A stretch of 64,000 nucleotides of DNA, from NCBI GenBank assembly GCA_965219575.1, contig OZ244779.1, forward strand, positions 32,001-96,000. The letters are read 5' to 3'. Positions 7,808 through 64,000 of the stretch are shown here, piece after piece (position 1 is the first letter of the stretch; every line of letters starts with the position of its first letter). The position numbers were made by a program, and so were the translations under genes. The notes under the pieces are model-generated. The model searched no databases. It was not told the origin of the DNA and worked only from the letters and a program-made list of their open reading frames with translations. Source of the stretch: Candidatus Oxydemutatoraceae bacterium (lineage in GTDB: Bacteria > Pseudomonadota > Gammaproteobacteria > Poriferisulfidales > Oxydemutatoraceae).

Positions 7808-8355
7808 ATGCACGATTTATGTAAAAACCCGAGATTAATAGGGCAAGTTCTCTTTGTCGTTTTTCTACTCGTGGTCTTAGGCGCACAAGTTGTGTCGGCA
7901 CAGACAACCTTGCCAGATTGCACTAATTCCTTATTAGACTTGTCCGATTACAATAAAGATGATGGTGATCTTGTAGATCAAGCTGTGGATATTGACAAGG
8001 ACGGCGACGGTTTGATAGAAATCTGTGATTTGGAGGGACTGTACGCATCATAGGAAGTGACAGCGTAGGCAGTTTGGTTGGTTCCAATAGCGGTTCCAGC
8101 ACCAACAGCTATGCGACAGGTTTTGATGATGCCTTATTCGGTGCTTCTGCCGGTTCTCCCACCATCACGAACAGTTCAACGAAAACCGAAATGGAACTGC
8201 AAACACCGACAACGGCAACCGGGATATATAGCGACTGGAGTACCGAAGTATGGGATTTCGGCACTTCGAACGATCTCCCGACACTCAAAGATGTGCCGGA
8301 AATAGAACTTATCCGAATCCGAACCAAAGTGTTTTTAGAGGGTCCCCTCCAATAG
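7808..8355 (+). pseudogene. internally deleted, frameshifted small member of the GLUG-repeat / KVFLEG-tail secreted family
   Basis: ORF 7808-8053 has a signal peptide (VSA|Q) and DIDKDGDGLIEICDLEGL. Another frame from about 8041 continues SVGSLVG..TNSYATG..TATGIYSDWSTEVWDFGT..IRIRTKVFLEGPLQ. All motifs are shared with the giant proteins. Confidence 0.8.
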
Positions 8356-8382
8356 CCTATCCTTTAATATCTATAGCGGTCA

Positions 8383-10113: not shown

Positions 10114-10215
10114 TGAACCGTCAATTTTGGATAATCGTTATTTATTGAACGATTATTGTAATCTATAATTCGAAGTACCGATGCCAACTTATCACTATAA
10201 AAGGATTAAACAACG

Positions 10216-11095: not shown

Positions 11096-11124
11096 CCGTG
11101 TTTCAAATTTGATGCGAGGGAATT

Positions 11125-13053: not shown

Positions 13054-13054
13054 T

Positions 13055-18012: not shown

Positions 18013-21000
18013 CTATTGTAAAAATCCCTCCAGGAACACTTTGGCTCGGATTCTAATACTTCGCTGTTCTTTACTGCCGGTAGACATTTCGTCGATTATC
18101 GGAGGTTGCGATTCCTCCGACACTTGCCCTTGCAACTCTATTTGCGTCGTATGCTCACTTCTCTTACCCAACCCGTCCACTACGGTAGTCCGCACACGAT
18201 AGGCGGTTCCCGGAGCCGAGTTCGGACCCTCCGGCAGCGTATAACGCATTCCGTTCACGCCTTCTAGTTCGTTGAAGGCATCGGACCCCACCGGACAATG
18301 CTCCCAAACATGCGTCTTCTCTTCAATGCCGTTATCATCGCTGAGCCGGTCGTTGAGTTGCAATACACCATCGGGCAATTCCTCAAGCACCGTCGTGCCG
18401 GTCGTCGGACTGTCTATTTGCAAAATAAGACACACGATTTGTGTCGTGCCGTCGGCATTATTAATTTTCACTTCCAACATCTCTTCCAACGAGTCTTCCA
18501 GATAATCCGCCTCGGGTGTGCCGCTGAACATAAGTCCCGACTCCGATTCGGCGTGATCTAACCAACTCGGCATCCGCATCACCGTATAGCCTTGCATCCC
18601 ATCACTGCTGCCTCTGACCGTATTTCTCGGAATGACATACTCAAACGGCTGATTCATTCCGACTAGCTGCACCGCTACACTTTGCTCGGCACGGGAAATC
18701 GTCAGGTGATAAGTTCTGCTCGCTTGCGACGCAAATTCAACCTGAACCGTAATCATCGTCATACCCGAAGCAGCCAATGAAATCGGGGAACTTTGGTTTC
18801 CGCTTAACACACTCTCGCTAAAGCCGTTATCGCTCATGATGCCGATGTCGGTGACACCGGGCGTAGCGGTCGGAAGCAATTTAATCGTATCCGCCTCGTT
18901 GGCAATCATCAAACGATAATTAAACACTTCGGTATTAAACAGATACGGTATCTCTTCGGTAGTTAATATAGACAAACCCGACAATCCGATCCGTTGATCG
19001 GGCATCAGCGTGCCGGCACCGGATTTAAGGGCAGGATATTGCGTTGCGGTGCCGAAATCCCATACCTCGAGATCCCAGCTACTGTATATACCGGTTGTCG
19101 TCGTCGGAGATTGCAACAGTGCCGTCGTCTTGCCTTCGCCACCGGCACTCTGTGCTCTTTCACTCGTCGTCTTATCCCAGTAGCTAGCGGTGATAGTCGC
19201 ATCTTCACTTTTAACACCCACTAGCCCACCTATGCCTCTTTCCCCTAAATTGCCTTCCACACGACCTACCGCATAGCTATTTATAATACGACCAACATGG
19301 ACACCGGCTAATCCTCCGACACTAAAGTTCGCCCGCACATCGGCAAATGAATAACTATCCCTAATCGTATAGTTTCTTTCATTATTACCCACTAATCCAC
19401 CGACCACATTTACTCCTACTACTTTACCGGTCGCATAACTGTTGACAACGCTACCGCTAATGCCGTTATTGCTACCAATCAAGCCTCCCACAGAGTTATT
19501 GCTTCCTTCTACATTCGCAATCGCATAACTATTGATAATATGACCGTTAGCTCCGATATTGCTCCCCACTAATCCGCCTACGCGACCCAGACCTTTGACA
19601 CTACCAATCGCATGACTACCGGAAACACGGCTGGCTAATAGAGAGCCTACTAAACCACCGACGAAGCTACTAAGATTGGCAGTTCCTATTGCTTCCACAT
19701 AAACTATCGCATAACTGTCGCTAATACTCGAATGCAAACTGCTACCAACTAATCCGCCGGTCTGAGAGTGCCCTATCACATCACCGGTCACATAGCTGTT
19801 ACTAACAATGCCACCGCCGCCCATGCGACCGACTAATCCACCGACCGCACGCCTTCCTCCGATATCCACATCTATTAGTCCGACACCGTTGATTTTAGTG
19901 CCACCACCGGATGCATGACCGAATAAACCTATATCGTTTTCTAGTTCTCTATTAATCATTAGATTGGAAATCGTGTTGTCGTTGCCCTCAAACCTCGTTA
20001 TCAGGCTCAGCGGTTTCCAGCCGGCACCTGTTGTCCAAGTACTCTTGTTAGCAATATCTTGATAATGATCATCGTTGTTGAAATCTAAATCATTGCTCAA
20101 TTCATATCCTCTGCATACACCTTCGCCACAACCTACGGTGCTTTTTATTGCCGATTCATTCTCTCTATAGCCGCTACCGCTCGGCGCATAGCGAATTGCA
20201 TTCAATCCCTCCAAACTGCAAATCTCTATCAAGCCGTCGTCGTCTTGATCTACGTCTGTTGTGCCACAGGATGTTAACGGCAGTGCTTCAATTTCTATAC
20301 TTAATTCAACCGCCGCCGCGCTCGCCGTAAGTGTCCCGCTGTCGTCGGTAGCAGTCAATCGCAGTCTCAACGAACCTGGCTGCAATGCAGTTAATTCAAA
20401 CTCGGCTGTTCTCGTCTCACCGAGATCGGCACCCAGCAATATCCCCGGCGGTTCTACAAGCACTATCTCCGTCATTGTCGGAATCTGCGCTATCGTGAGT
20501 GTGACAATATCCTCTGCATCAACTTCCGATATGACTACCGAGACCCTCGTCGTCTGCCCGGATAGTAGTCTGATAGAACTATTATCACTCGGCACATCTA
20601 TGCTCGGGGCGGTATTCGTTTTCCCTCGATAGGCTGAGAAATCGGATGCAATCTCTTCGCTGTAGCCTTGCCCGTCGGTATAACTCACTATCACGCGATA
20701 CTGGACGATACCGCCGGTATACTTCGGTGCGGTATACGCCTCGCTCGTGCCGGCAGGCACATTCGTCCATGCGGTACCGACACTCTCTCTGCTCTGCCAC
20801 TGATATCCGATAGTGCCGACACCGCCGTCGGGGTCGCCGCTCAAATCTATAGCCGGCGCAGTAAGCACTCTGTCGTTTAGACTCGGCGCGCCCAATGCCG
20901 CAATCTGTCCGTTGTTGCGCTTGGCTATGGTAATTTCTATTTGCCGTGTGATGATGCCCACATAACTACTCGCTTCCAATGTCAACATCGCATTAGCGGT

Positions 21001-42907: not shown

Positions 42908-42967
42908 TTATTGTAGCGAACCTTCCAGAAAAACTTTGTTTCTAACGCAAATAGCCGTGCCGGGGCG
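42908..42967 (-). pseudogene. orphan 3' end of a KVFLEG-tail gene (RPGTAICVRNKVFLEGSLQ-stop)
   Basis: Manual translation; 51/57 nt identical to 44411-44467. There is no ATG start before the upstream in-frame stop at about 43050. Confidence 0.75.
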
Positions 42968-43085
42968 ACTTCGAGTAGCTCGAGGTCGCCCCGGCGACGG
43001 ACACCGGTGGCTTCGGGCACCTGCGTGGTCAACAAATGTTAATATGTGTTATATTTCATATATATCTACATAGGAAAAAATAGAG

Positions 43086-44191: not shown

Positions 44192-44682
44192 CTCCTATGC
44201 AGTAAGTTATTTATGAATGTCTCGCACACTTCTACCATGTGCCAACCAGCGTATGTATTATATCCACAAAATGAATGGGTGAATGTGTTCATCATGCAGA
44301 TATGGCGCGACCACATAAGAGGATAAACCTTAGTTTATCCGACCTACATTCTTATGTTGAGGTTCTGCACAAAGTCACGCCACTTGCCCAACTGGAGCAA
44401 GTGGCGGTTCTATTGGAGCGGACCCTCCAGAAAAACCTTGCTTCTAACGCAAATAGCTGTGCCGGGGATAGGTAAAATATCGTTAGGAAAATCCAATTGG
44501 GCATTAGCGGTACTAGAACTGGTGATTCCAATAGTGATTTTTATGGTTTTACACATATCAAAAGAATCACTCAGTGTTAATCGCATAGGCACATTGACGT
44601 TCTCCCAAAATTTAGTACTAATGCTTAAAGTTAGTTTTTCCGATAAACTAGAGAAGTTAAAAACATTACAGGAGAACTTAAC

Positions 44683-44949
44683 ATGAAGAGAAAACGTTTT
44701 AGTGAAGAACAAATCATTAAGGCATTAAAGTCAAATCAAGCCGGCATGAAAGTAATCGATATCTGTCGTGATCTAGGCATCGCCGAACAGACATTTTATC
44801 GCTGGCGCAGCAAGTATAATGGCATGGAAGTGGCAGAAGCTAAACGCCTGCGAGAGCTTGAAGCCGATAATAGCAAGCTCAAGAAGCTATTGGCTGAATC
44901 GGTGATGCAGTGTGAAACACTTAAGGAGGTATTATCAAAAAAGTGGTAA
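44683..44949 (+). CDS. IS3 transposase OrfA
   Basis: MKRKRFSEEQII..L....G.....ICR.LGIAEQTFYRWRSKY HTH; AAAAAAG -1 frameshift motif at 44937-44943. Confidence 0.93.
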   Translation: MKRKRFSEEQIIKALKSNQAGMKVIDICRDLGIAEQTFYRWRSKYNGMEVAEAKRLRELEADNSKLKKLLAESVMQCETLKEVLSKKW

Positions 44950-49351: not shown

Positions 49352-52300
49352 TTATTGAAGAGGGCCTTCTAAAAATACTTTGGTGCGAATCCTAAGCAGC
49401 GGACGAGTTGTATAAACACGCTCCGGCGAATAAACCGCTTCGCGATAACCTTGACCATCGGTATAAGTCCCTTTGACGCGAAATAGACTGCCATCCTCTA
49501 CTACAGAGAACCTGTTGCCACCTTCCACCAAAATACTAGAACCCGATATCATGTACCGTATCCCGCCGGCATCGTCGATATTCATCCAATGACTCTCCGA
49601 GGGACAACGCCCTTCATTCCCTTCACAGACTTGCCATTGATACACCACAGTCCCACTAGTGCCTCCGTCGGGATCGTCGGATAATATCATCGCCGTTAAT
49701 GTCGTCCCTCCGCTTACTATTTCTACGGAGATTCGTATCGTTGCAGAACCATTATTTTTCTTCCTCACTTCTACCAATACCGCACTTGTCGTAGCGAGCT
49801 CCCCGTCGCTCACTTCTACCTCCAAATTGAGCGTCGTTCGGGTGGATGCAGCATCTTTTATATAGTCGGGTGGAATGTCGAGTGTTGCCGGGTTGCTATT
49901 GTCATTGCTAAATACCCCGGAATCCTCGCTCCAGCGATACATTAAGTCGTCATAGTTTGCATCACTTGCACTCACGCTAATATTTTGCGTATCGCCTTCA
50001 CCGATCACCTCCGTTGCAGTAGTGCTTGTGATAACCGGTCGTTCATTTGCAACGATATAGGAGTTGGATTGAATAACCACAGACTGTCCTAGATTATCCA
50101 TGATTATTAGGTCTAGTCTATAACTGGTGCCGGTCGCGCGTCCCAATTTATTGTCCGCTATCATATAGGTTCGGCTGGTAGCATCCGTTATAGCAACACC
50201 CTCTCTATACCACCGATAATTCACCCCAACGATATTGTCCGCATCCTCTAGCGTTGAAGTCGCACGCAGTAACCATTTATTGCTATTATCCGGTTCTATG
50301 CGCACACGACCGGTCGGCTTCTTACCAACACGCACCAGCAAAGATACATTGGCGGTTGATCCTCTGCTATCCGTTGCGGTGAATACGACAGTGGCTGTTC
50401 CTGCTATAACACCGGTTAGTGTGAAGGTTATACTCGTATCGGTCGTTATCGTATCGGTTTGTGTCGGTATCACCGATACGATAGTCCGGCTTGATGACCT
50501 CGCCGCCAAAACGACACCATCGCCGACATCAAAATTAGTGTCCGATATCAAAACCATTACTTGCGTGGTGTTGCCCAACCTTATCGCCGGCTGCGGTGCG
50601 GCAATAAGCTCAAGCATCGGGGCTTCGTTCCCTTCGACTGCCACCTCAAACCGTTTTGAGACCTCGGAGTTCGACACACCTCTGCGGTCATTCACCGTCG
50701 CAGTGACTGTCGTAATACCGGCACCGATACCGGTAATCTTAATCGTGCGCGTCGTACCCGCTCCCGCTACACTTACGCTTGCAACTTCGGGTTCATCCGA
50801 TTGAATACCGAATATTAGATCACTTGATATATCGTCGGCATCGGCATCGCTTAGCTCCACACCAAACACAGCCTCTGCCCCTTCTAACAGACTGATACGT
50901 TGCGAAGGTATACCGCTAATCGTCGGCGAATTATTTACACGCTCTCTATGAGTATATCCCGGTGTATCAATCGTTTCGCGATAACCTTGACCATCGGTAT
51001 AAGTCGCTTCTGCACGAAATACACTGATATCTTTTACTATCTGAAATCTACTGCCGCCTTCCAACAAAATACTAGAACCCGATATGATGTACTGTGCTTC
51101 GTTAGCTCCATCAATATCCAGCCAATCATTCGCCGAGGGACAAGAGAATCCGTTCCCTTCACATACCTGCCATTGATACGCCACAGCCTCACCGGTGCCT
51201 CCGTCAGGATCATCGGAGGATACGGTTGCCAGGATTGCCGTATCTCCGTTTATTTCGTCTAGGGAAACTCCTAATCTTGCAAAATCATTATTTTTCTTGT
51301 TCACCACGACCAGTACCGTTCTTGTCGTAAAGAGCTCCCCGTCGTTTACTTCCACCTCCAGATTGAGTATCGTTTGGGTGGATACGGCATCTCTTATATA
51401 GTAGGGTGGAATGCTTAATCTCGCCGGGTTGCTATTCTCATTGCTTAATACCCCGGAGTCCCCAATCCAGCGATACACTAAGTCGTCATAGTTCGGATCA
51501 CTCGCTGTCACGCTAATATCCTGCCTGTCACCCTCACTGATCTCTGCTACAGGAACGGTAATAACAGGTTGTTCATTTGCAACCTCATAGGGGTTCGATC
51601 GAATAACTACCGATTGCCCTAGACTATCCATAACCGTCATTTCTAAACTATAGCTTGTGCCTACGGCGCGTCCATTTCTACTGTCCGGTATCGTATAGGT
51701 CGGGTTGGTAGCATTCGCTATCGCAACACCCTCTCTATACCATTGATAATTTACCTCAACAATGCCGTTCGCATCCTCTACCGTTGAAGCCACACGCAGT
51801 AACCATTGATTACTGCTATCCGGTTCTATGCGCACACCACCGGTCGGCTTCGCATCGACAGACACCAGCAAAGAGACACTATCGGTTGACACGCTCCTAT
51901 CCGTTGCAGTGAATACAATAGTCGCTGTTCCTGCTTTAATACCGCTTAGTGTGAAGGGTACGCTCATATCGGTCGCTATAGGGTCGGTTCTCGTCGGTAT
52001 CACCGATACGATAGATCGGCTTGACGACATCGCCTCCAAAACAACACCATCGCCCACATCAAAATCGGCATCCGACACCAAAACCATTACCTGTGTGGTA
52101 TTGCCCAGCCCTATCGTTCGATTGGGTGCGGCAATAACCTCAAGCATCGGGGCTTCGTTCCCTTCAACCTCCACCTCAAACCGTTCCGAGACTTCGGAGT
52201 TCGACACACCTCTACCATCGTTGACCGTCGCAGTGATGGTCGCAATACCGACACCGATAGCGGTAATCTTAATCGTACGGGTCGTACCCGCTCCTTCTAC

Positions 52301-55300
52301 ATCAACCCTTGCAACTTCGGGTGTGCCGGATTGAATACCGAATACCAGATCGCTAGAAATATCGTCGGCATCGGCATCATTTAGCACTACCTCAAACTCG
52401 GTCTCTGTTCCTTCCAACAACCTAATCCGGCGCGCAGGTAGACCACTAATCGTCGGCGACACATTCACACGCGTTGAATAACTATAGCCTTGCGAATACA
52501 CCGCCTCGCGATAACCTTGACCATCGGTATAAGTCCCTGCTGCGCGAAATAGACTGCCACCTTCTACTAAAGGAAACGCACTGCCACCTTCCACCGAAAT
52601 ACTAGAACCCAATATCATGTATTGTGTTCCGGTAGCGTCGTCAATATCCAGCCAATCATTTGCCGACGGACAGCCCGCTTCATTTCCTGCACAGACTTGC
52701 CATTGATACGCCACAGCCCCATTAATTCCATTGTCGGGATCGTCGGATAATACCATCGTCGTCAATGTCGTCCCTGCGCTTACTATTTCTATGGCGGTTC
52801 CTAATCTCGCCGAACCATTGTTTCTCTTATTCACCACAACCGATAATGTTCTTGTCGTAAAGAGTGCCCCGTCGCTTACTCTCACCTCCAGATTGAGGGT
52901 TGTTCGGGCGGATGCGGCATCTTTTATATAGTCCGGTGGAATACCGAGTGTTGCCGGATTGCTATTGTCATTGCTCAATACCCCGGAATCCTCGCTCCAG
53001 CGATACATTAAGTCGTCATAGTTCGGATCACTCGCACTCACGCTAATGTCCTGCGTATCACCTTCGTTTATCATTTCCGCTCCGGAAACGATAATAACCG
53101 GTCGTTCATTCGCAATCGTATGCGAGTTCGACTGGATAATTACCGATTGTCCTATACTATCCACAACCATCATTTCTAAACTATAGCTTGTGCCTGCAGT
53201 GCGTCCTGCTCTAGTGTCCGGTATCGTATAGGTTTGACTGGTGGCACCCGCTATCGCAACACCATTTCTATACCACCGATAATCTACCTCAACGATACCG
53301 TTCGCATCCTCTATCGTTGAAGCTGCGCGTAGTAACCATTTATCACTGTTATCCGGTTCTATGCGCAAGCTACCGCTCGGTTTTGCATCAATCAATAATG
53401 TGAAGGTCGTCCGTGTGCTGCCGCCTATACCGTCATCGACAAACACGGTCACCATCAAACCTGTCTCGTTCTTGCTTGCATCTCCGATTAGCGGCACACC
53501 GACCAAAGTTCCCGTCGTAGTGATTACGATGCTTTGCGGCAACCCGACTGCGCTATACCTTAATACATCATCGTCGGCATCGGCAAAAAACTCGCTGGTC
53601 TTCAGCTCGAATGCTTCTCCTACCGTTGCCACAACTCGCGACGGCACATTGTCGAACAACACCTGCGGTGGTGTATTGACCCGTACCATAACCTCTGTAT
53701 CGGTACTAACATTCTTACTATCGGTTGCGGTGAATGTAATTGTCGCTTCTCCACTTTGCTTGGCGGTTAGCATGAGGGTGATAATCGTATCGGTCGTTAT
53801 CGTGTCGGTTTGTGTCGGTAGCACCGATACCCTAGATCGGCTTGACGACACCGCCTCCAAAACAACACGATCGCCGACATCAAAATTAGTGTCCGACAGC
53901 AGCACCACGACCTGTGTAGTGTTGCCCAGCCCTATCGTTTGCATAGGTACGGCAATCACCTCAAGCATCGGGGCTTCGTTCCCTTCCACTTCCACCTCAA
54001 ACCGTTCCGAAACCTTGGAGTTTGACACACCTCTATCATCATTGACCGTCGCAGTGATTGTTGCAATACCGGCACCAACACCGGTAATCTTAATCGTACG
54101 GGTCGTACCTGCTCCCGCCACATCAACTCTTGCAACTTCGGGTGTATCGGACCGAACACCGAATACTAGATTGCTAGAAATATCGTCGGCATCGAGATCG
54201 TTTAGCTCCACCTCAAACTCGGCCTCTGTTCCTTCAAACAGCCTGATCCGTTGTGCAGGCAGGCCGCTAATCGTCGGCGACGCATTGACACGCGTTGAAT
54301 AACTATAGCCTTGCGAATACACCTCCTCACGATAACCTTGACCATCGGTATAAGTCCCTTCTACACGAAATAGACTGCCACCCTCTACTAAGGGAAATGT
54401 ACTGCCATCTTCCACCAAAATACTAGAACCCGATATCATATACCGTATCCCGCCGGCATCGTCAATATTCATCCAATGACTCTGCGAAGGACAACGCCCT
54501 TCATTCCCTTCACAGACTTGCCATTGATACACCATAGTCCCACTAGTGCCTCCGTCGGGATCGTCGGATAATATCATCGCCGTTGATGTCGTCCCCCTGC
54601 TTCCTATTTCTACGGAGATTCGTATCGTTGCAGAACCATTATTTTTCTTCCTCACTTCTACCAATACCGCACTTGTCGTAGCGAGCTCCCCGTCGCTCAC
54701 TTCTACCTCCAAATTGAGCGTCGTTCGGGTGGATGCGACATCTTTTATATAGTCGGGTGGAACATTGAGTGTTGCCGGGTTACTATGCTCATTACTCAAT
54801 ATCCCGGAATCCTCGCTCCAGCGATACATTAAGTCGTCATAGTTTGCATCACTCGCACTCACGCTAATATTTTGCGTATCGCCCTCAGCGATCATCTCCG
54901 CTGCAGTAATGCTTGTGATAACCGGTCGTTCATTTGCAATGACATAGAGGTTGGATTCGATAACCACCGATTGTCCCAGGTTATCCATGATTATTAGGTC
55001 TAGTCTATAACTTGTGCCGGTAGCACGCCCCGCTCTATTGTCGGTTATCATATAGGTTCGGCTGGTAGCATCCGTTATAGCGATACTGTTTCTATACCAC
55101 CGATAATTCACCCCAACGATATCGCTTGCATCCGCTATCGTTGAAGTCGAACGCAACAGCCATTTATTAGTGTCGTCCGGTGTTATGCTAACACTGTCGT
55201 TTGGTCGTGCATTAACACGCACCGATAGAGCCACACTACCGCGCAACCCGGCACCGTCCATTACGATGAATGTTATCGCCGCTGTTCCTGCCTTAACACC

Positions 55301-58300
55301 GGTTAATGTAAAGGTTATGCTCGTATCGGTCGTTATCGTATCGGTTTGCGTCGGTACCACCGATACGATAGACCGGCTCGATGACATCGCCTCCAAAACG
55401 ACACGATCGCCGATATCAAAATTAGTGTCCGACACCAACACCACGACCTGTGTGGTGTTGCCCGGCTTTATCGCGAGCTGCGGCGCAATAATAATCTCAA
55501 GCATCGGAGCTTCGTTCCCTTCGACTTCCACCTCAAACTGTTTTGAAACCTCGGAGTTCGACACACCTCTGCCGTCATTCACCGTCGCAGTGACTGTCGC
55601 AATACCGACACCGATAGCGGTAATCTTAATCGTGCGGGTCGTACCTGCTCCCTCTACACTTACGCTTACGACTTCGGGTTCATCCGATTGAATACCGAAT
55701 ATTAGATCACTTGATATATCGTCGGTGTCGGCATCGCTTAGCACTACAACAAACTTGGTCTCGGTTCCTTTGAACAGCCTAATCCGTTGCAAAGGTATAC
55801 CGCTAATCTTCGGCGAATTATTCACACGCTCTCTATGAGTATATCTCGGAGCGTCAATCGTTTCACTATAACCTTGACCATCGGTATAAGTCGCTTCTGC
55901 ACGAAATACACTGCTATCTTTTACTATCTGAAATCTGCTGCCGCCTTCCAACAAAATACTAGAACCCGATATGATGTACTGGGCTTCGGTAGCTCCCTCA
56001 ATATCCAGCCAATCATTCTCCGAAGGACAAAAGAATCCGTTCCCTTCACATACCTGCCATTGATACGCCACAGCCTCACCGGTGCCTCCGTCAGGATCAT
56101 CGGAGGATACGGTTGTCATGATTGCCGTATCTCCGTTTATTTCGTCTAGGGAGAGTCCTAATCTTGCAGAGCCATTATTTTTCTTGTTCACCACGACCAG
56201 TACCGTTCTTGTCGTAAAGAGCTCCCCGTCGCTTACTCCCACCTCCAGATTGAGTATCGTTTGGGTGGATACGGCATCTCTTATATAGTAGGGTGGAATG
56301 CTTAATCTCGCCGGATTGCTATTCTCATTGCTCAATACCCCGGAGTCCCCAATCCAGAGATACATTAAGTCGTCATAGTTCGGATCACTCGCTGTCACGC
56401 TAATGTCCTGCGTATCACCCTCACTGATCATCTTTGCCACAGGAACGGTAATAATCGGTCGTTCATTTGCAACCGTATAGGAGTTTGAGCGAATAACTAC
56501 CGATTGCCCTAGACTATCGATGACCGTCATTTCTAAACTATAGCTTGTGCCTGCGGCGCGTCCCTCTCTATTGTCCGCTATCGTATAGGTCGGGCTGGTA
56601 GCACCCGCTATCGCAACACCCTCTCTATACCATTGATAATTTACCTCAACAATGCCGTTCGCATCCTCTACGATTGCAGTCAATAGCCATTGGTCATCGG
56701 GATCTACACGCACACCACCGGTCGGCTTCGCATCGACAGACACCAGCAAAGAGACACTATCGGTTGACACGCTCCTATCCGTTGCAGTGAATACAATAGT
56801 CGCTGTTCCTGCTTTAATACCGCTTAGTGTGAAGGGTACGCTCATATCGGTCGCTATAGGGTCGGTTCTCGTCGGTATCACCGATACGATAGAGCGGCTT
56901 GACGACATCGCCTCCAAAACCACACGATCGCCGACATCAAAATTAATGTCCGATATCAAAACCATTACCTGTGTGGTGTTGCCCAGCCCTAGTATTTGCT
57001 GTGGGAAAACAATAACCTCAAGCATCGGGGCTTCGTTCCCTTCGACTTCCACCTCAAACCGTTCCGAGACTTCGGAGTTCGACATACCTCTACCATCGTT
57101 GACCGTCGCAGTGATTGTCGTAATACCGACACCGATAGCGGTAATCTTAATCGTACGGGTGGTACCCGCGCCTTCTACATCAACCCTTGCAACTTCGGGT
57201 ATGTCGGATTGAATACCGAATACCAGATCGCTTGATATATCGTCGGCATCGGGATCGTTCAGCTCCACCTCAAACTCGGTCTTTGTTCCTTCCAACAACC
57301 TAATCCGTTGTACGGGTAGTCCGTTAATCGTCGGCGACGCATTGACACGTTTTGAATAACTATAGCCTTGCGAATACACCTCTTCGCGATAGCCCTGACC
57401 ATCGGTATAAGCCCCTTCTACGCGAAATAGACTGCGACCTTCTACTAAAAGAAATAGATCGCCACCTTCCACCGAAATACTAGAACCCAATATCATGTAT
57501 TGTGTTCCGGTGGCGTCGTCAATATCCAACCAATCATTAGCCGACGGACAACCCGCTTCATTTCCTGCACAGACCTGCCATTGATACGCCACAGCCCCAC
57601 TCATTCCATTGTCGGGATCGTCGGATAATACCATCGTCGTCAGTGTCGTCCCTGCGCTTACTATTTCTATGGAGGTTCCTAATCTCGCAGAACCATTGTT
57701 TCTCTTGTTCACCACGACCGATACCGTCCCGGTCGTAGCAAGCTCTCCATCGCTTACTCTCACTTCTAAATTAACTGTTGTCCGAGAGGATACGGCATCT
57801 TGTATATAGTCCGGTGGAATACCGAGTGTTGTCGGATTGCTATTGTCATTGCTCAATACCCCGGAATCCTCGCTCCAGCGATACATTAAGTCGTCATAGT
57901 TCGGATCTCTCGCAATCACGCTAATGTCCTGCGTATCACCTTCGTTTATCATCTCCGCTACAGTAATACTTGTGATAATCGGTCGTTCATTCGCAATCAT
58001 ATAGGAGTTTGATTGGATAACTACCGATTGTTCTATACTATCAATGACCGTCAGTTCTAAACTATAGTTTGTGCCTGCGGCGCGTCCTGCTCTATTGTCC
58101 GGTATCGTATAGGTCGGGCTGGTAGCACTCGCTATCGCAACACCATTCCTATACCACCGATAATTTACCTCAACGATACCGTTCGCATCCTCTACCATTG
58201 CAGTCAACAACCATTGGTCATCGGGATTTACACGCAAGCTACCACTCGGTTTCGCATCAATCAATAGTGTGAAGGTCGTCCGTGTGCTGCCGCCTATACC

Positions 58301-61300
58301 GTCATCGACAGACACGGTCACCATCAAACCTGTCCCGTTCTTGCTTGCATCTCCGATTAGCGGCACACCGACCAAAGTTCCCGTCGTAGTGATTACGATG
58401 CTTTGCGGCAACCCGACTGCGCTATACCTTAATACATCATCGTCGGCATCGGCAAAAAACTCGCTGGTCTTCAGCTCGAATGCTTCTCCTACCGTTGCCA
58501 CAACTCGCGATGGCACATCGTCGGACAACACCTGCGGTGGTGTATTGACCCGTACCATAACCTCTGTATCGGTACTGACATTCTTACTATCGGTTGCGGT
58601 GAATGTAATCGTCGCTTCTCCACTTTGCTCGGCGGTTAGCATGAAGGTTATCATCGTATCGGTCGTTATCGTGTCGGTTTGTGTCGGTAGCACCGATACC
58701 CTAGATCGGCTTGACGACATCGCTTCCAGAACAACACGATCGCCGACATCAAAATTAGTGTCCGACACCAGCACCACGACCTGTGTGGTGTTGCCCAGTC
58801 CTGTCGTTTGCTCGGGTGCGGCAATAACCTCAAGCATCGGGGCTTCGTTCCCTTCGACTTCCACCTCAAACCGTTCCGAAACCTTGGAGTTTGACACACC
58901 TCTATCATCGTTCACCGTCGCAGTGATTGTCGCAATACCGGCACCGATAGCGGTAATCTTAATCGTGCGGGTCGTACCCGCACCTGCCACATCAACCCTT
59001 GCAACTTCGGGTATATCGGACTGAACACCGAATACTAGATTGCCGGAAATATCGTCGGCATCGGCATCATTTATTGTTACATTCAATGTGGTTTCTGTTC
59101 CTTCAAACAGCCTGATCCGTTGCAAAGGTAGACCGCTAATCGTCGGCGACGCATTGACACGCCCTGAATAACTATAGCCTTGCGAATACACCACTTCGCT
59201 ATAGCCCTGACCATCGGTATAAGTTCCTTCTACACGAAATAGACTATCACCCACTACTAAGGGAAGTGTGCTGCCATCTTCCAGCAAAATACTAGAATCC
59301 GATATGATGTATTGTGTTCCGCCGGCGTCGTTAATATTCATCCAATTACTCTCCGATGGACAACGCCCTTCATTCCCTTCACAGACTTGCCATTGATATC
59401 CTACAGCCCCACTAACTCCATTGTCGGGATCGTCGGATAATACCATCACCGCTAATGTCGTCTCTCTGCTTCCTATTTCTATGAGGTTTCCTAAAGTTGC
59501 AGAACCATTGTTCTGCTTGTTGACCACCACCGATACCGTCCCGGTCGTGGCGAGCTCTCCGTCGCTTACTCTCACCTCTAAATTAACTGTTGTTCGGGTG
59601 GATGCGGCATCTTTTATATAGTCCGGTGGAATGCCGAGTATTGCCGGGTTACTATGCTCATTGCTCAATATTCCGGAATCCTCGCTCCAGCGATACATTA
59701 AGTTGTCATAGTTCGGATCACTCGCACTCACGCTAATATTTTGCGTATCGCCTTCACCGATCATCTTCGTTGCAGTAGTGCTTATGATAACCGGCCGTTC
59801 ATTCGCAACTCTAAGCGAGTTGGATTGAATAACTACCGATTGCCCTATACTGTCTATAACCGTCAGTTCTAAGCGATAGCTTGTGCCGGTCGCACGCCCT
59901 TCTCTATTATCCGCTATCATGTAGTTCCGATTGGTGGCATTAGCTATCACAACGCCATTTCTATACCACCGATAATCCACCTCGGCTATACCGTTCGCAT
60001 CCTCTATCGTTGAAGTCGAACCCAATAACCATTTATTGCTGCTATCCGGTTCTATGCGCACACTACCGGTCGGCTTCGCATCGACACGCACCGACACGGT
60101 TTCACTATCGGCCGCCCCTTTGCTATCGATTACAGTAAACCTAACCATTGCAGTACCCCCTCTGACACCTTTCAGCGTAATGCGCTCCGTCTTATTACTA
60201 CTTATTCCGGCAATTTGCCTCGGCTCTACTAACACTTCCGATACCACGGATGATGTTAATAACACCCTATCGCCGGCATCAAAATTATCATCCATCACTT
60301 CGACCGAGATCACTATCCTGTCATCCACCGATATCAATTCGGACAGTGATGTGATTGTAATTTTAGGGGCATCGTTCGTTTCTGTGGTCACCACAAATGT
60401 CGTACTACTTACAGAATCGGCTGAACCTTCACCGTCGTCCACCGACACCGTAATCTCCGACCTACCGATATCCGAACCGGTGAAAACACGAAGTGTACGA
60501 ACTAAACCGCCGCCTTCGGCTATGCTCGCAGTTGCAATGTTGTCGTTGCTAGACTTAACACCGGTCTTGAATTGGGTCGGATCGTCGCCAATACCGACAC
60601 TTAATACGACATTCAAATCTTTCACGGTCTCCGTCAATAATCTGATATCCGATATCGGTTCTATAGGTGCTGTGCGTACGATTTGAAGTTGCCCGGTCAG
60701 CGGTGTGCCGCAATCCGGATCTTCGGCAGTGCCACATGCCGGTTGACTTTGATCAAGTCCTACCGCATATTCAAGCGTCGGGTATTGATCGGTTGCGCTA
60801 AAATCCCAATCGGCAGTACTCCAATCGTAATAAATCTCTGTCACACTATTGCCCGGTTGCGTAGGTATTTGCATCTCTACACTGGTCCTAGAAATGCCAC
60901 CGGCACTTACTACGGTGGGGTTATTGGTTTTATTCCAATAACTTTTTTCAACATGACCGTCCCTATTCTCTCCGATTAGTCCGCCGCTATTGGCATCTCC
61001 TCTTACACGACCTGTCGCATAGCTTTTAGTAACTCTGCCGACACCCGAGTTGTTAGCTAGACCTAGATTAACCCCGACTAATCCACCGACCCCGTCTTTG
61101 CCTCTCACATTACCTTGAGCATAGCTGTTTATAATGGCTCCTCTTGCACTCCATCCGACCAAGCCTCCGATATAGCGATTCGCACCGTCCACATTACCTC
61201 TAGCATAACTATTCGTAATCGTACCCTGAAGATTATTACCGACAAAGCCTCCGACTCCGTTATCGCCTTTTACAAATCCGAGAGCATAACTATTCGTAAT

Positions 61301-64000
61301 AGCTCCTGAATTCCAACCGGCTAAACCCCCCACATCCGCCCTGCCTATAATGCGCTCTCCGGTATAACTATTTGTAATAATCCCGCTATTTTCCCCGGCT
61401 AAGCCACCGACTCTACCGCCCCCGTCCACTTTGACTTCCGCTCTGCTACGCATAATAATCCCGGTATTGTTGTTCCTGCCAACCAGACCACCGACTTCTT
61501 CCTCACCGTTCACATTCCCTTTTGCATAGCTATCGCTGATTGTGCCACCGTCGTTATCACCCACCAAACCACCGACATTCCGACGAAGTCCCACTACCGT
61601 ACTGCTTGAATAACTATCGGAAATCGTCCCACCACGATGCCAACCGACTAATCCTCCCACATCGTACGTGCCACTCCCTCTCACTTGTCCTGTTACATAA
61701 CTACCGATGATAGAACCGCCCTGTTTGTACCCGACTAAGCCACCTACACCTTGATTACCCGAAATATTCACATCTAATAAGCCGACATTTGCTATCTCGG
61801 CATTACTCGCCGTGATACCGAATAAACCAACACCTCTCGCAGCACTACTCCTATCTATTCTTAAGTTAGCAATCGTATGACCCTTTGCATTGAATGTGGC
61901 ATCAAAAGGTGCTTTTGAAGTACCGATCGGTAGCCAACCCGAACCCGTCGTCCAAGCCGTGCCGATAATTCCACTACGATAACTTGTGCTTCGTTCAAAA
62001 TCTAAACTCCGTTTTAGTTCATAGCCCTTACAACCCGCATCGGGACAACCTGTGGTAATCTTATCCGCCGTCTCGTTTTGTCTATAACCGCTACCGTCCA
62101 ACTGATAGCGAATGGCATCCAAACCTTCCAAATCATTTATTTCTATCAAGCCGTTGTTGTCTATATCAACATCTGTTATAAAAATAAATACTTCGGATAT
62201 AAGTACTTGTACATAGCCTTGCCCGTCGGTATAAGCATACTGTACGCGATACTCGGCGTAGGCCGTATCTTCGGGAACACGATACATATTGCCGGTAACA
62301 CCTTCTATGTCTATCCAATCGGCGTTTATATCCGCTCGCCGTTGCCACAAATAACTATTTATCGTGCCGGAACCGTCCGGGTCTGTTGACAAGTCTACTT
62401 CGGGGGCAGTTAATGTTCTATCCGATCGTGTAATAATAGGATCCGACTGTACTGCGGTACCATTATCCGCCTTAGCGATTGTCAATCTTAGGTCTTTAGT
62501 CTCAGTCTTCGTGCCATCGTTGATTTCCAATCTAATCGTAATCTCACGATCATCTTCGGTTTTGCTCAGGGAAAGCTCGGGTATCGGTACATCCAAAACC
62601 GCTTGACTAATTCCTTCCACCGGTAGTAGACGAAGCATTCCCGATACTTGTGTCCATTTATAACGCAATGTACTTTCATCTACATCCCGGGCGGTTGTTC
62701 TCTTTAGTATGATGCGCTCACCCTCGTTAAAAGTTCTATCGTTAAAGGCAAGCGTATATCGGATCAGTACATCATGGGATGTTAGCACTTCAACGGTAGC
62801 CGTAGTAACACCGACAGTGTTCAATGAAATCTCGGAACTCGTAGTACCACTCGGCATCCGTTCTCTGAAACCCCCACTACTTTCAATAATAATATCGGTA
62901 TCAAAGTTCGCAGCAGCCGGGGTCAGACGGATTTGCCTTATGTCGGTCTCGTCTATAACGCGATAACTTAATACTTCGGGCTTAAAGAACGGCGACAATA
63001 TCAAGCTACTCGGCAAACCCAATCGGAGCAACCCGAGACGTTGGTTCGGCTGCAATGTGCCGTCGCTATATTTGAGAGCAGGGTATTGTTCGGATGTGCC
63101 GAAATCCCATACATCGTCATCCCAGCTACTATATATCCCGGTCGATGTCGTGGGCAATTGCAACTCCGAAGTCGTCTTGCCTCTGCCACCGACACTACTC
63201 GCTCTACCGCTGGTCTGCCTATCCCAATAGCTATGTGTAATAACACCTGAACCAGCTGCGTTAAAACCGCCAGCATCGCGTTCCGCTACCACATTGCCGG
63301 TAGCATAGCTATTGGTAATAACACTCAGATGGAATCCGACAAAACCGCCAGCACCGCTTTCCGCTACCACATTGCCGGTGGCATAGCTATTGGTAATACT
63401 ACCATCAGTATCATGAAATCCGACAAAACCGCCACCGTCGTTGCCCGCTGTCACATTGCCGGTAGCATGGCTATTGGTAATAACAGCTGAACTAAATCCA
63501 ACAAAACCGCCAACGGTTTCGCCTCCCCGCACATGACTGGCCGCATAACTATTGGTAATACTGCCTCCTTCAGCCACTCCGATAAAACCGCCAACGGTTT
63601 GTACCGCTGCCACACTGCCGGTAGCATAGCTATCGGTAATAACAGCTGAACTAAATCCAATAAAACCGCCAACGGTTCCTCTCCCTCCCACATGACTGGC
63701 CGCATAACTATTTATAATGCGTGTTCCCTCACTTTGCCCGATAAAACCACCGGTTACTATGTCCCCTTCCACATTGCCGATAGCATGGCTATTTCTAATA
63801 CTACCAACTAAACTAATTCCGATAAAACCACCAACACCTCTGCTTTCCTCACCTCCTTGCACACGGCCGGTCGCATAGCCATTGATAATATTTACATCAT
63901 CAGTACTCCCGATAAAGCCGCCTACTCTTGAGCCTCCTTGCCCTCCCTGCACATTCCCGATAGCATAACTATTCATAATGCGTGTTCCCCCACTTTGCCC
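49352..64000 (-). CDS. giant repeat protein (>4880 aa, 5' end outside the window): GLUG modules, cadherin/Ig/PKD-like arrays, KVFLEG tail; putative adhesin
   Basis: The frame is open to 64000 (GQSGGTRIMNSYA...). It contains GGF(V/I)G/GGLVG repeats, DIDNNGLIEI..GYEL, NxxP.I cadherin-like linkers and YQWQVC..CP..YTDGQGY; ends LRIRTKVFLEGPLQ. Confidence 0.85.
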   Translation of the reverse strand, partial: GQSGGTRIMNSYAIGNVQGGQGGSRVGGFIGSTDDVNIINGYATGRVQGGEESRGVGGFIGISLVGSIRNSHAIGNVEGDIVTGGFIGQSEGTRIINSYAASHVGGRGTVGGFIGFSSAVITDSYATGSVAAVQTVGGFIGVAEGGSITNSYAASHVRGGETVGGFVGFSSAVITNSHATGNVTAGNDGGGFVGFHDTDGSITNSYATGNVVAESGAGGFVGFHLSVITNSYATGNVVAERDAGGFNAAGSGVITHSYWDRQTSGRASSVGGRGKTTSELQLPTTSTGIYSSWDDDVWDFGTSEQYPALKYSDGTLQPNQRLGLLRLGLPSSLILSPFFKPEVLSYRVIDETDIRQIRLTPAAANFDTDIIIESSGGFRERMPSGTTSSEISLNTVGVTTATVEVLTSHDVLIRYTLAFNDRTFNEGERIILKRTTARDVDESTLRYKWTQVSGMLRLLPVEGISQAVLDVPIPELSLSKTEDDREITIRLEINDGTKTETKDLRLTIAKADNGTAVQSDPIITRSDRTLTAPEVDLSTDPDGSGTINSYLWQRRADINADWIDIEGVTGNMYRVPEDTAYAEYRVQYAYTDGQGYVQVLISEVFIFITDVDIDNNGLIEINDLEGLDAIRYQLDGSGYRQNETADKITTGCPDAGCKGYELKRSLDFERSTSYRSGIIGTAWTTGSGWLPIGTSKAPFDATFNAKGHTIANLRIDRSSAARGVGLFGITASNAEIANVGLLDVNISGNQGVGGLVGYKQGGSIIGSYVTGQVRGSGTYDVGGLVGWHRGGTISDSYSSSTVVGLRRNVGGLVGDNDGGTISDSYAKGNVNGEEEVGGLVGRNNNTGIIMRSRAEVKVDGGGRVGGLAGENSGIITNSYTGERIIGRADVGGLAGWNSGAITNSYALGFVKGDNGVGGFVGNNLQGTITNSYARGNVDGANRYIGGLVGWSARGAIINSYAQGNVRGKDGVGGLVGVNLGLANNSGVGRVTKSYATGRVRGDANSGGLIGENRDGHVEKSYWNKTNNPTVVSAGGISRTSVEMQIPTQPGNSVTEIYYDWSTADWDFSATDQYPTLEYAVGLDQSQPACGTAEDPDCGTPLTGQLQIVRTAPIEPISDIRLLTETVKDLNVVLSVGIGDDPTQFKTGVKSSNDNIATASIAEGGGLVRTLRVFTGSDIGRSEITVSVDDGEGSADSVSSTTFVVTTETNDAPKITITSLSELISVDDRIVISVEVMDDNFDAGDRVLLTSSVVSEVLVEPRQIAGISSNKTERITLKGVRGGTAMVRFTVIDSKGAADSETVSVRVDAKPTGSVRIEPDSSNKWLLGSTSTIEDANGIAEVDYRWYRNGVVIANATNRNYMIADNREGRATGTSYRLELTVIDSIGQSVVIQSNSLRVANERPVIISTTATKMIGEGDTQNISVSASDPNYDNLMYRWSEDSGILSNEHSNPAILGIPPDYIKDAASTRTTVNLEVRVSDGELATTGTVSVVVNKQNNGSATLGNLIEIGSRETTLAVMVLSDDPDNGVSGAVGYQWQVCEGNEGRCPSESNWMNINDAGGTQYIISDSSILLEDGSTLPLVVGDSLFRVEGTYTDGQGYSEVVYSQGYSYSGRVNASPTISGLPLQRIRLFEGTETTLNVTINDADADDISGNLVFGVQSDIPEVARVDVAGAGTTRTIKITAIGAGIATITATVNDDRGVSNSKVSERFEVEVEGNEAPMLEVIAAPEQTTGLGNTTQVVVLVSDTNFDVGDRVVLEAMSSSRSRVSVLPTQTDTITTDTMITFMLTAEQSGEATITFTATDSKNVSTDTEVMVRVNTPPQVLSDDVPSRVVATVGEAFELKTSEFFADADDDVLRYSAVGLPQSIVITTTGTLVGVPLIGDASKNGTGLMVTVSVDDGIGGSTRTTFTLLIDAKPSGSLRVNPDDQWLLTAMVEDANGIVEVNYRWYRNGVAIASATSPTYTIPDNRAGRAAGTNYSLELTVIDSIEQSVVIQSNSYMIANERPIITSITVAEMINEGDTQDISVIARDPNYDDLMYRWSEDSGVLSNDNSNPTTLGIPPDYIQDAVSSRTTVNLEVRVSDGELATTGTVSVVVNKRNNGSARLGTSIEIVSAGTTLTTMVLSDDPDNGMSGAVAYQWQVCAGNEAGCPSANDWLDIDDATGTQYMILGSSISVEGGDLFLLVEGRSLFRVEGAYTDGQGYREEVYSQGYSYSKRVNASPTINGLPVQRIRLLEGTKTEFEVELNDPDADDISSDLVFGIQSDIPEVARVDVEGAGTTRTIKITAIGVGITTITATVNDGRGMSNSEVSERFEVEVEGNEAPMLEVIVFPQQILGLGNTTQVMVLISDINFDVGDRVVLEAMSSSRSIVSVIPTRTDPIATDMSVPFTLSGIKAGTATIVFTATDRSVSTDSVSLLVSVDAKPTGGVRVDPDDQWLLTAIVEDANGIVEVNYQWYREGVAIAGATSPTYTIADNREGRAAGTSYSLEMTVIDSLGQSVVIRSNSYTVANERPIITVPVAKMISEGDTQDISVTASDPNYDDLMYLWIGDSGVLSNENSNPARLSIPPYYIRDAVSTQTILNLEVGVSDGELFTTRTVLVVVNKKNNGSARLGLSLDEINGDTAIMTTVSSDDPDGGTGEAVAYQWQVCEGNGFFCPSENDWLDIEGATEAQYIISGSSILLEGGSRFQIVKDSSVFRAEATYTDGQGYSETIDAPRYTHRERVNNSPKISGIPLQRIRLFKGTETKFVVVLSDADTDDISSDLIFGIQSDEPEVVSVSVEGAGTTRTIKITAIGVGIATVTATVNDGRGVSNSEVSKQFEVEVEGNEAPMLEIIIAPQLAIKPGNTTQVVVLVSDTNFDIGDRVVLEAMSSSRSIVSVVPTQTDTITTDTSITFTLTGVKAGTAAITFIVMDGAGLRGSVALSVRVNARPNDSVSITPDDTNKWLLRSTSTIADASDIVGVNYRWYRNSIAITDATSRTYMITDNRAGRATGTSYRLDLIIMDNLGQSVVIESNLYVIANERPVITSITAAEMIAEGDTQNISVSASDANYDDLMYRWSEDSGILSNEHSNPATLNVPPDYIKDVASTRTTLNLEVEVSDGELATTSAVLVEVRKKNNGSATIRISVEIGSRGTTSTAMILSDDPDGGTSGTMVYQWQVCEGNEGRCPSQSHWMNIDDAGGIRYMISGSSILVEDGSTFPLVEGGSLFRVEGTYTDGQGYREEVYSQGYSYSTRVNASPTISGLPAQRIRLFEGTEAEFEVELNDLDADDISSNLVFGVRSDTPEVARVDVAGAGTTRTIKITGVGAGIATITATVNDDRGVSNSKVSERFEVEVEGNEAPMLEVIAVPMQTIGLGNTTQVVVLLSDTNFDVGDRVVLEAVSSSRSRVSVLPTQTDTITTDTIITLMLTAKQSGEATITFTATDSKNVSTDTEVMVRVNTPPQVLFDNVPSRVVATVGEAFELKTSEFFADADDDVLRYSAVGLPQSIVITTTGTLVGVPLIGDASKNETGLMVTVFVDDGIGGSTRTTFTLLIDAKPSGSLRIEPDNSDKWLLRAASTIEDANGIVEVDYRWYRNGVAIAGATSQTYTIPDTRAGRTAGTSYSLEMMVVDSIGQSVIIQSNSHTIANERPVIIVSGAEMINEGDTQDISVSASDPNYDDLMYRWSEDSGVLSNDNSNPATLGIPPDYIKDAASARTTLNLEVRVSDGALFTTRTLSVVVNKRNNGSARLGTAIEIVSAGTTLTTMVLSDDPDNGINGAVAYQWQVCAGNEAGCPSANDWLDIDDATGTQYMILGSSISVEGGSAFPLVEGGSLFRAAGTYTDGQGYREAVYSQGYSYSTRVNVSPTISGLPARRIRLLEGTETEFEVVLNDADADDISSDLVFGIQSGTPEVARVDVEGAGTTRTIKITAIGVGIATITATVNDGRGVSNSEVSERFEVEVEGNEAPMLEVIAAPNRTIGLGNTTQVMVLVSDADFDVGDGVVLEAMSSSRSIVSVIPTRTDPIATDMSVPFTLSGIKAGTATIVFTATDRSVSTDSVSLLVSVDAKPTGGVRIEPDSSNQWLLRVASTVEDANGIVEVNYQWYREGVAIANATNPTYTIPDSRNGRAVGTSYSLEMTVMDSLGQSVVIRSNPYEVANEQPVITVPVAEISEGDRQDISVTASDPNYDDLVYRWIGDSGVLSNENSNPARLSIPPYYIRDAVSTQTILNLEVEVNDGELFTTRTVLVVVNKKNNDFARLGVSLDEINGDTAILATVSSDDPDGGTGEAVAYQWQVCEGNGFSCPSANDWLDIDGANEAQYIISGSSILLEGGSRFQIVKDISVFRAEATYTDGQGYRETIDTPGYTHRERVNNSPTISGIPSQRISLLEGAEAVFGVELSDADADDISSDLIFGIQSDEPEVASVSVAGAGTTRTIKITGIGAGITTVTATVNDRRGVSNSEVSKRFEVAVEGNEAPMLELIAAPQPAIRLGNTTQVMVLISDTNFDVGDGVVLAARSSSRTIVSVIPTQTDTITTDTSITFTLTGVIAGTATVVFTATDSRGSTANVSLLVRVGKKPTGRVRIEPDNSNKWLLRATSTLEDADNIVGVNYRWYREGVAITDATSRTYMIADNKLGRATGTSYRLDLIIMDNLGQSVVIQSNSYIVANERPVITSTTATEVIGEGDTQNISVSASDANYDDLMYRWSEDSGVFSNDNSNPATLDIPPDYIKDAASTRTTLNLEVEVSDGELATTSAVLVEVRKKNNGSATIRISVEIVSGGTTLTAMILSDDPDGGTSGTVVYQWQVCEGNEGRCPSESHWMNIDDAGGIRYMISGSSILVEGGNRFSVVEDGSLFRVKGTYTDGQGYREAVYSPERVYTTRPLLRIRTKVFLEGPLQ

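Follow-up and report, generated by a model that had tools for sequence, protein, structure and literature searches.

A peptide-selected C-terminal tail on Sec-exported, often giant proteins of Candidatus Oxydemutatoraceae

Five loci in a 64,000-nucleotide stretch of the genome of a Candidatus Oxydemutatoraceae bacterium (Gammaproteobacteria; GenBank assembly GCA_965219575.1, contig OZ244779.1, positions 32,001 to 96,000 of the forward strand; this whole stretch is called the window) encode the same C-terminal peptide of 14 residues, [ILV]x[IVL]RxKVFLEGxLQ, with the stop codon directly after it. Analysis of the complete genome, of related genomes and of public sequence collections shows that this tail is a lineage-restricted mark, located at the very end of the protein and selected as a peptide, on an arsenal of Sec-exported adhesins.

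An earlier note on the window had placed the five 14-mers at 8311-8355 on the plus strand and at 18013-18057, 42908-42952, 44410-44454 and 49352-49396, and inspection of the sequence found each of them there, the last four on the minus strand, directly before a stop codon. A degenerate DNA pattern for KVFLEGxLQ-stop matched the window five times, at the same five places, with 0.00 matches expected, and no match of any kind was found in 100 dinucleotide-preserving shuffles of the window. When the loci were aligned with their flanks, DNA likeness was limited to approximately 45 nt 5′ of the stop codon. Downstream of the five stops the alignment contained unrelated sequence or repeat elements.

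The tail in the complete genome

The genome to which the window belongs is complete, with 2,369,097 bp and 47% GC (labelled G000). It was scanned in six frames for the core motif [KR][VIL][FLY]L[EQ]G, which occurred 56 times. In 48 cases the motif was part of an open reading frame (ORF) that stopped 2-5 codons later, and in 44 of these 48 tailed ORFs the stop followed exactly three codons after the Gly. The stop codons were TAG (22), TAA (22) and TGA (4). The tailed ORFs range in length from 28 to 16,069 codons; 20 have at least 1,000 codons, 10 at least 4,000 and 5 at least 10,000, while seven are shorter than 130 codons and resemble remnants. According to a crude gene call, 42 tailed genes account for 130,359 of the 728,770 coded residues, or 17.9%.

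A logo made from 43 tails showed that F, L, E and G are invariant. The flanking positions are also strongly conserved, with Val at −8 in 39 tails, Lys at −9 in 38, Arg at −11 in 36, Pro at −3 in 33, Leu at −2 in 40 and Gln at −1 in 41, and there is no conservation upstream of −15. In the consensus, hydrophobic or small residues prevail at −14, −12, −10, −8 and −6 and basic ones at −13, −11 and −9; the invariant F-L-E-G is then followed by x-L-x and the stop. As judged from sequence, this is a pattern in which a Gly-Pro or Gly-Ala break comes after a putative amphipathic edge strand.

Tailed genes are enriched in export signals, a point that the earlier note had proposed as a check of its interpretation. 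A crude heuristic detected a signal-peptide-like N-terminus in 35 of the 42 tailed genes, as compared to 300 of 1,410 genes without a tail that encode at least 150 aa. Seven tailed genes had no called signal peptide, and at least two of them are failures of the heuristic or truncated genes.

Two further features of the N-terminal regions were observed. An acidic motif of the type DxDxDDDGLIE(I/L)C(D/Y)L occurs just after the signal peptide in 17 of the 48 tailed ORFs, including both giants of the window, and looks like a putative calcium-binding or dockerin-type loop. As judged by eye, many tailed proteins have a signal peptide with ..A-Q as its last residues, and the mature proteins may thus often begin with Gln.

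Selection on the peptide

The DNA sequences that encode the tail are highly diverse. Among 44 tail-coding 42-mers all 44 are distinct, every synonymous codon family is used, and Leu at −6 is encoded by six different codons. Where the tail residue is the same, third-position identity is only 0.53. Since all 44 DNA versions differ, selection acts on the peptide, which agrees with the protein-level conservation that the earlier note had read from synonymous codon changes in the window. The tail is also retained in a second genus of the family at 60-62% GC, as compared to 47% in the window's genome. In this second genus, ..RFRIR[VI]FLEGALQ or ..RMRIKVFLEGALN forms the end of proteins whose length ranges from 1,158 to more than 3,300 aa.

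A family of small tailed proteins of 170-199 aa, of which 17 members were gathered from the public protein collection, shows the same conservation within one protein type. At a mean identity of 51%, the invariant columns are located in the signal peptide and at the tail residues K, V, F, L, E, G, L and Q, and the body has only three single invariant positions. The signal peptide is nearly as conserved as the tail. A protein atlas look-up of a small tailed protein gave no usable match.

These data bear on the possibility that the tail has no signal function and is a cassette at gene ends that recombination has spread among adhesin genes, or a feature of the mRNA end with a translational or regulatory role. 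Such a cassette would be in line with the frequent occurrence of tail-bearing 3′ remnants, three of which lie in the window while seven of the 48 ORFs have fewer than 130 codons, and with the arrays of repeat elements that flank many of the stops. However, the codon data disfavor it, with no two of the 44 nucleotide versions alike and every synonymous codon in use. Furthermore, the peptide is kept in genomes of 47% and ca. 61% GC, it is invariant in a family whose bodies share ca. 50% identity, and the sequences 3′ of the stops are unrelated. We consider this explanation highly improbable.

The five loci of the window

Of the five loci in the window, three are remnants. Only two are intact genes, encoding 4,138 aa and, within the window, more than 4,880 aa. 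The features are as follows.

18013..30429, minus strand: intact tailed gene of 4,138 aa with a signal peptide, the acidic motif (DxDxDDDGLIEICDL), 12 GLUG stretches, and PKD and cadherin-like domains
18016-18057, minus strand: tail IRIRAKVFLEGFLQ of the 4,138-aa gene, with the stop codon at 18013-18015
49352..64000, minus strand: giant tailed gene with GLUG, Big_9 and Ig domains, open at the window edge
49355-49396, minus strand: tail LRIRTKVFLEGPLQ of the 5,348-codon giant
7808..8355, plus strand: remnant, in two frames, of a tailed paralogue family of 424-476 codons, with tail IRIRTKVFLEGPLQ
42908..43048, minus strand: 46-codon remnant consisting of the tail region only, without start codon or N-terminus, with tail ICVRNKVFLEGSLQ
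44410..44724, minus strand: 104-codon ORF without signal peptide or N-terminus, with tail ICVRSKVFLEGPLQ

The giant gene at 49352 comprises 5,348 codons when followed into the genome; its start, at window coordinate 65398, is beyond the window. For 18013-20000, within the other giant, a look-up of RNA evidence listed no RNA data set. Of the three N-termini that the earlier note had described as visible and of the Sec type, the two at 7808 and 30429 are indeed signal-peptide-like, whereas the third belongs to this giant and lies outside. As the earlier note had stated, the tail is found on otherwise different proteins. Three of its five examples are remnants.

The locus at 7808-8355 had been described as a protein of 184 aa, which is not correct since it is not a single ORF. 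The frame at 7808-8053 encodes a signal peptide and the acidic motif, and the frame at 8074-8355 encodes the last ca. 95 residues including the tail. These frames match residues 15-129 and 381-476 of a 476-codon paralogue; the middle ca. 250 residues are deleted in the locus. By this comparison the locus is an internally deleted, frame-shifted remnant. The sequence of 7700-8400 is present without any difference in contigs of four public runs from two studies, which may include the source sample, and the remnant is thus not an obvious assembly slip.

Of the 104-codon ORF at 44410 only the last 61 residues match, to a 190-codon paralogue of the small tailed family. An MT-A70 methylase gene (43442-44191) lies on one side of this ORF and an IS3-type transposase (44943-45767) on the other. 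The remaining genes of the window are housekeeping genes, including bioB, bioF, nucleases, DUF1326, a cobB-like gene, an acyl-CoA synthetase, nadC, rpoD and groEL. No candidate machinery is encoded within the 64 kb, as the earlier note had stated.

Distribution of the tail

To describe the occurrence of the tail among relatives a relaxed DNA pattern was used, for which the reversed-pattern control gave one match in total. The tail was found in 8 of 19 genomes of the family. These comprise all five genomes of the window's genus, with 43, 26, 20, 19 and 15 matches, and three of five genomes of the second genus, with 12, 11 and 7 matches. With the same pattern it was found in none of nine genomes from four other genera of the family. 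The last residue of the tail is species-specific and can be Q, R, E or N. Among 401 sampled genomes of the class, more than one match occurred only in G000 and in G007, a member of the second genus; six other genomes had one match each, compared to five control matches.

A 38-bit pattern searched over 185,579 species genomes returned 61 stretches, 58 of them in six metagenome-assembled genomes (MAGs). Three of these MAGs are labeled Candidatus Porisulfidus sp., one Candidatus Oxydemutatoraceae bacterium and two 'uncultured Chromatiales'. Among these species genomes the tail is confined to Candidatus Porisulfidus and a second lineage of Ca. Oxydemutatoraceae. The remaining three stretches are singletons in unrelated phyla, where by our own estimate approximately four would be expected by chance; two of them, when translated with their flanks, are without the upstream R-x-R pattern. 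In JGI metagenomes nine stretches were found, only one of them resembling a real tail. This sole plausible hit, on a metagenome contig of 59% GC (locus L151), ends in ..VRSKVFLEGPLP-stop and has a variant last residue.

At the protein level, a 30-column profile built from 70 tails was compared, unanchored, with 1.84 billion public protein representatives at E ≤0.001. It gave 110 protein matches, and 106 of these end exactly three residues after the Gly. Two of the remaining four are cut one or two residues short and the other two extend by 22 and 44 residues. With 106 of 110 public matches being terminal, the motif is not an internal strand of a known domain, which the earlier note had listed as an outcome that would speak against a terminal signal.

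Searches of 12 tailed or tail-containing proteins against Pfam and NCBIfam returned body domains only (GLUG, Big_9, cadherin-like, Calx-beta, PKD, Ig, FGE-sulfatase, LRR and fn3). In these 12 proteins the tail was not covered by any Pfam or NCBIfam model, in the case of NCBIfam up to E 1. Four spellings of the motif were absent from ca. 8.4 million full texts.

Comparison with described terminal signals

The view that no described sorting signal fits the tail was borne out: there is no Pfam or NCBIfam match, no transmembrane helix, no terminal aromatic residue and no context of RTX repeats or two-partner secretion. The tail lacks defining features of the PilY1 plug, of the C-terminal domains of the type IX secretion system (T9SS), of tripartite sorting signals, of autotransporter and outer-membrane protein signals, and of type I secretion cargo. 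By analogy, it would work most like a PilY1 plug or a sorting tag.

According to excerpts of the report by Denic et al. 2026 (10.64898/2026.09.18.752573), PilC/PilY1 has a C-terminal 'plug' of 12 residues that docks on the minor pilin PilK by β-strand augmentation. The tail resembles this plug in length (14 vs. 12 residues), in its position at the very end of large adhesins that have a signal peptide and are not pilins, and in the low model confidence obtained when the protein is folded alone, as far as the excerpted text describes the plug. In PilY1 the plug is preceded by a β-propeller of family PF05567 (IPR008707); no match to this family was found in G000 at E ≤1, in a search for which the control genomes also lacked an over-threshold match, and PF05567 was absent from the Pfam scans of the 12 tailed or tail-containing proteins, including the two giants of the window. 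The tail is moreover found on ca. 48 unrelated cargo proteins per genome, whereas plugs occur on one or two. A pattern in which tailed proteins replace PilY1 was considered and rejected: PF05567 occurred in 0 of the 19 family genomes, but the control genomes were likewise without an over-threshold match and the sensitivity of the search is unproven.

Another short terminal signal is that of TcpF and CofJ of type 4b pili. In the part of the work of Nguyen et al. 2023 (PMC10120004) considered here, a short disordered terminal segment of a Sec-exported protein engages a tip minor pilin and the protein is exported through a secretin; for TcpF the N-terminal export signal binds the minor pilin TcpB. 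The tail would be similar in these respects. The TcpF/CofJ signal, as described in that part, is N-terminal, present on a single cargo and cleaved on secretion, whereas the tail is C-terminal on dozens of proteins, with one copy located after a signal peptide.

Like the T9SS C-terminal domains of types A and B, the tail is a C-terminal mark on Sec-exported, often giant, adhesin-like proteins. T9SS C-terminal domains are folded, span ca. 70-100 residues and occur in Bacteroidota. The tail differs by having 14 conserved residues, no type A or B match in Pfam or NCBIfam, and a gammaproteobacterial host. The T9SS protein SprA (PF14349) gave no match in the genome, in a search that also matched in no control genome. 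The analogy with the T9SS that the earlier note had drawn is conceptual only, with 14 conserved residues set against a domain of 70-100 residues.

The systems PEP-CTERM/exosortase, GlyGly-CTERM/rhombosortase and LPXTG/sortase share with the tail that one short C-terminal signature occurs on many secreted proteins and is restricted to certain lineages. Such tripartite signals consist of a motif, a transmembrane helix and a basic cluster. In contrast, the tailed proteins end three residues after the Gly (44 of 48) and have no hydrophobic helix, and NCBIfam sorting-signal models gave no match at E ≤1 in 10 proteins. Autotransporter, outer-membrane β-signal and two-partner secretion proteins are different too, as the last residue is Gln in 41 of 43 tails and the genome encodes a single Omp85-family protein. 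Finally, the tailed proteins are unlike type I RTX cargo because 35 of the 42 genes have a signal-peptide-like N-terminus and no RTX family appeared in the Pfam scans.

Predicted structure of a small tailed protein

An AlphaFold2 model of a tailed protein of 179 aa, computed with a 17-row alignment, had a mean pLDDT (predicted local distance difference test) of 61.8. The body was modeled as a β-sandwich with values of ca. 70-77, and residues 160-179 scored below 50 save for two isolated residues. The low score of this segment indicates that the tail is not confidently packed on its own protein.

A tail that stays unpacked could serve assembly, by acting as a donor strand that inserts into the β-sandwich of another tailed protein and links the adhesins into fibres or a matrix. 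Six small β-sandwich paralogues of 170-199 aa carry the tail and could be the acceptors. Their body is modeled with no more than moderate confidence, and one face of the strand is hydrophobic. On the other hand, the basic faces would repel each other, and no chaperone-usher or comparable genes turned up, although no search was aimed at them. We regard such cross-assembly as quite unlikely.

Secretion machines of the genome

G000 encodes one Omp85-family protein, one TolC, four secretins and three ATPases of the GspE type of type II secretion systems (T2SS). The single Omp85 protein implies that there is no TpsB or TamA. With one Omp85 protein, one TolC and four secretins, the secretins are the only evident wide conduits for Sec-exported cargo. 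This inventory points to secretin-based machines rather than to a new barrel translocase.

The T2SS is complete. GspC, GspD, GspA, GspB and GspE are encoded at one locus and GspF to GspN at another, which adjoins a small tailed gene. GspC has a weak PDZ_2 match (E 0.0044) at residues 249-301. A second set, system C, consists of PilN, PilP, a secretin and an ATPase, and minor pilins of the T4a type are encoded elsewhere in the genome. A compact type IV filament system, system D (G000 1222786-1249732, loci L029 and L031), comprises a secretin, three small proteins, an ATPase, a pilin, a platform protein and a minor pilin of 298 aa.

Some observations on the surroundings of these genes can be added. 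On the 3′ side of system D, hfq and gloB are followed by a giant of 5,772 aa with a degenerate tail (..RVFPEGLLL). The neighborhood in G007 is alike, with a tailed giant, hfq and gloB, and then the filament set ca. 15 kb further on. At G000 2264621-2272230, a secretin of 585 aa, of which the secretin domain was confirmed, is encoded beside small acidic ORFs and proteins of 436-708 aa; this looks like a type III secretion-type locus. A tailed gene is located just 3′ of pilW-pilX-pilE-like genes in G000; this arrangement does not occur in G001-G004 and was rejected as a lead.

Among the 19 family genomes, GspK was found in 19 and GspC, at full length, also in 19. The first protein of system D was present in 15 and its minor pilin in 14. 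In the eight tail-bearing genomes the first protein of system D was always present and the minor pilin was found in seven, the exception being the incomplete genome G018. The system C protein occurred in 14 of the 19 genomes and in one of five of the second tail-bearing genus. The T2SS and system D were thus the only machines detected in every tail-bearing genome.

Possible recognition of the tail

The secretins as wide conduits, together with the two published cases in which a terminal segment docks on a minor pilin, make strand docking the explanation that we rate most likely: the tail would dock by β-strand addition to a component of the T2SS or of a type IV filament. By analogy with these cases we consider this plausible but tentative, and short of probable. 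The tag would mark the whole Sec-exported adhesin arsenal for one shared partner in the envelope. Once Sec has exported the cargo, its tail, which is otherwise disordered, would join one component of a secretin machine as an edge strand, with the T2SS and the compact system D as candidates. Docking could then allow the cargo to be pushed through the secretin, to stay displayed on the surface, or both. Both the reading of the tail as a docking or sorting signal and the choice of the machine that would read it are inferred from the same observations.

Several results weigh against this explanation. No tested machine shares the distribution of the tail among the 19 family genomes: the T2SS is present in all of them and system D also in tail-less ones. 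The PilX-like minor pilin occurs in 10 of the 19 genomes and in all five of the window's genus, but in none of the five genomes of the second genus. The latter absence, in a genus of which three of five genomes bear the tail, is tempered by the fast divergence of minor pilins. The machine inventory and the phyletic and neighbor tests identified no reader protein. An all-against-all comparison of neighbors showed no gene family that recurs beside tailed genes in G000; the recurring groups were spurious ORFs from repeat elements, including a 46-member 'family', and a few small unrelated groups. Inspection of seven tail sites of G007 likewise found no recurring neighbor and mostly housekeeping genes. 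The last 499 residues of a G007 giant had no homologue in five tail-less genomes. Because the tail-less relatives lack the tested giant, the presence or absence of the tail says little about a reader. The tail is also nearly invariant across two genera, unlike PilY1-type plugs, which show little sequence conservation between systems according to the excerpts of Denic et al. 2026 (10.64898/2026.09.18.752573). Finally, strand docking does not account for how a 16,000-residue protein would pass a secretin.

The earlier note had proposed that the tail is an address for an outer-membrane translocase. The part of this proposal that stands is the terminal, protein-level motif on proteins with a Sec signal; the search for a reader protein or a co-distributed gene gave none.

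The lack of a dedicated gene that tracks the tail is what would be expected if the partner were universal to the envelope. In that case the cargo would be exported by a general route such as the T2SS and the tail, as a cationic amphipathic strand, would hold it on lipopolysaccharide (LPS) or another abundant component of the outer membrane. Strands in which basic and hydrophobic residues alternate bind lipid A, and some T2SS products stay bound to LPS. The tail has this alternation, with Arg at −11 in 36 and Lys at −9 in 38 of 43 tails, while the opposite face consists of I, I, V and L. That F-L-E-G is invariant and the end is fixed (44 of 48 in the genome, 106 of 110 in the public collection) suggests a specific protein contact over electrostatics, and surface retention of this kind appears possible but doubtful.

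Internal and extended copies of the motif

The tail motif is not always terminal. In G000 it occurs directly after the signal peptide of a protein of 1,368 aa with two FGE-sulfatase domains (1796419-1800540, locus L011), which lies between two tailed giants. It is also found at approximately residue 294 of two paralogous fn3/LRR proteins. In these two kinds of protein, encoded by three genes, the internal motif is followed by a Gly-rich linker. A further copy is located at residue 727 of an ORF of 974 codons, whose paralogue T15 ends in a tail; by eye, the sequence after this copy resembles leucine-rich repeats. Five further ORFs have extra residues after the usual end, namely 2-5 residues (four of the 48) or 7 residues. 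The internal copies and extended ends indicate that the motif usually, though not necessarily, has a free carboxylate at a set distance. Internal placement is more in line with a module for strand addition than with a free carboxylate being recognized.

This affects the possibility that the tail is read by a periplasmic domain of the PDZ type, either the PDZ-like domain of GspC during T2SS substrate selection or a protease for C-terminal processing or quality control. As a rule the tail is strictly terminal, GspC is present at full length in all family genomes and it has the weak PDZ_2 match. In addition, EpsC's PDZ domain is needed for secretion of one Vibrio cholerae substrate according to the part of Shannon et al. 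2025 considered. However, the same part of that study describes the PDZ-dependent information as an Ig fold and not a linear tail. The last residue of the tail is polar and varies by species (Q, R, E or N) with the conserved residues lying further in, and extensions of 2-5 residues as well as internal copies occur. A PDZ-type reader therefore seems improbable. The variable last residue (R, E or N in other species) also excluded a role of the terminal Gln as a cross-linking residue, which was considered as well.

Implications for substrate choice

How the T2SS and related filament machines choose their substrates is still poorly defined, as stated in the parts of Shannon et al. 2025 and Nguyen et al. 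2023 (PMC10120004) that were considered. A short and strict tag on a fifth of the coded protein mass of a symbiont would make this question testable with a peptide. The tag further defines the probable host-contact arsenal of an abundant lineage of sponge symbionts. Tails that end in the consensus sequence (Pro at −3 in 33 of 43) have a tryptic end peptide after Lys at −9 in common, which offers a diagnostic handle for metaproteomics.

The stronger form of the strand-docking explanation is that the tail is a linear, transferable export-and-display signal for the T2SS or a type IV filament machine, which we hold to be rather unlikely. If true, a symbiont with a 2.4-Mb genome would load ca. 48 adhesins of up to 1.7 MDa on a single secretin-based apparatus, and no targeting signal of this class of machines would before the tail have been both defined by sequence and shared by many cargo proteins. 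If the tag is portable, it could be used for the display of cargo on cell surfaces.

Additional observations in the window

Two further features of the window were noted. A single ORF of 404 aa at 32211-33425 on the minus strand combines a fatty-acid desaturase domain with a fragment of an ISL3 transposase; an insertion sequence has probably disrupted a gene here or become fused to it. Repeat elements fill intergenic gaps, for example at 8360-8700, at 7480-7770 and after several of the stops, and give rise to spurious ORFs with recurring peptides.

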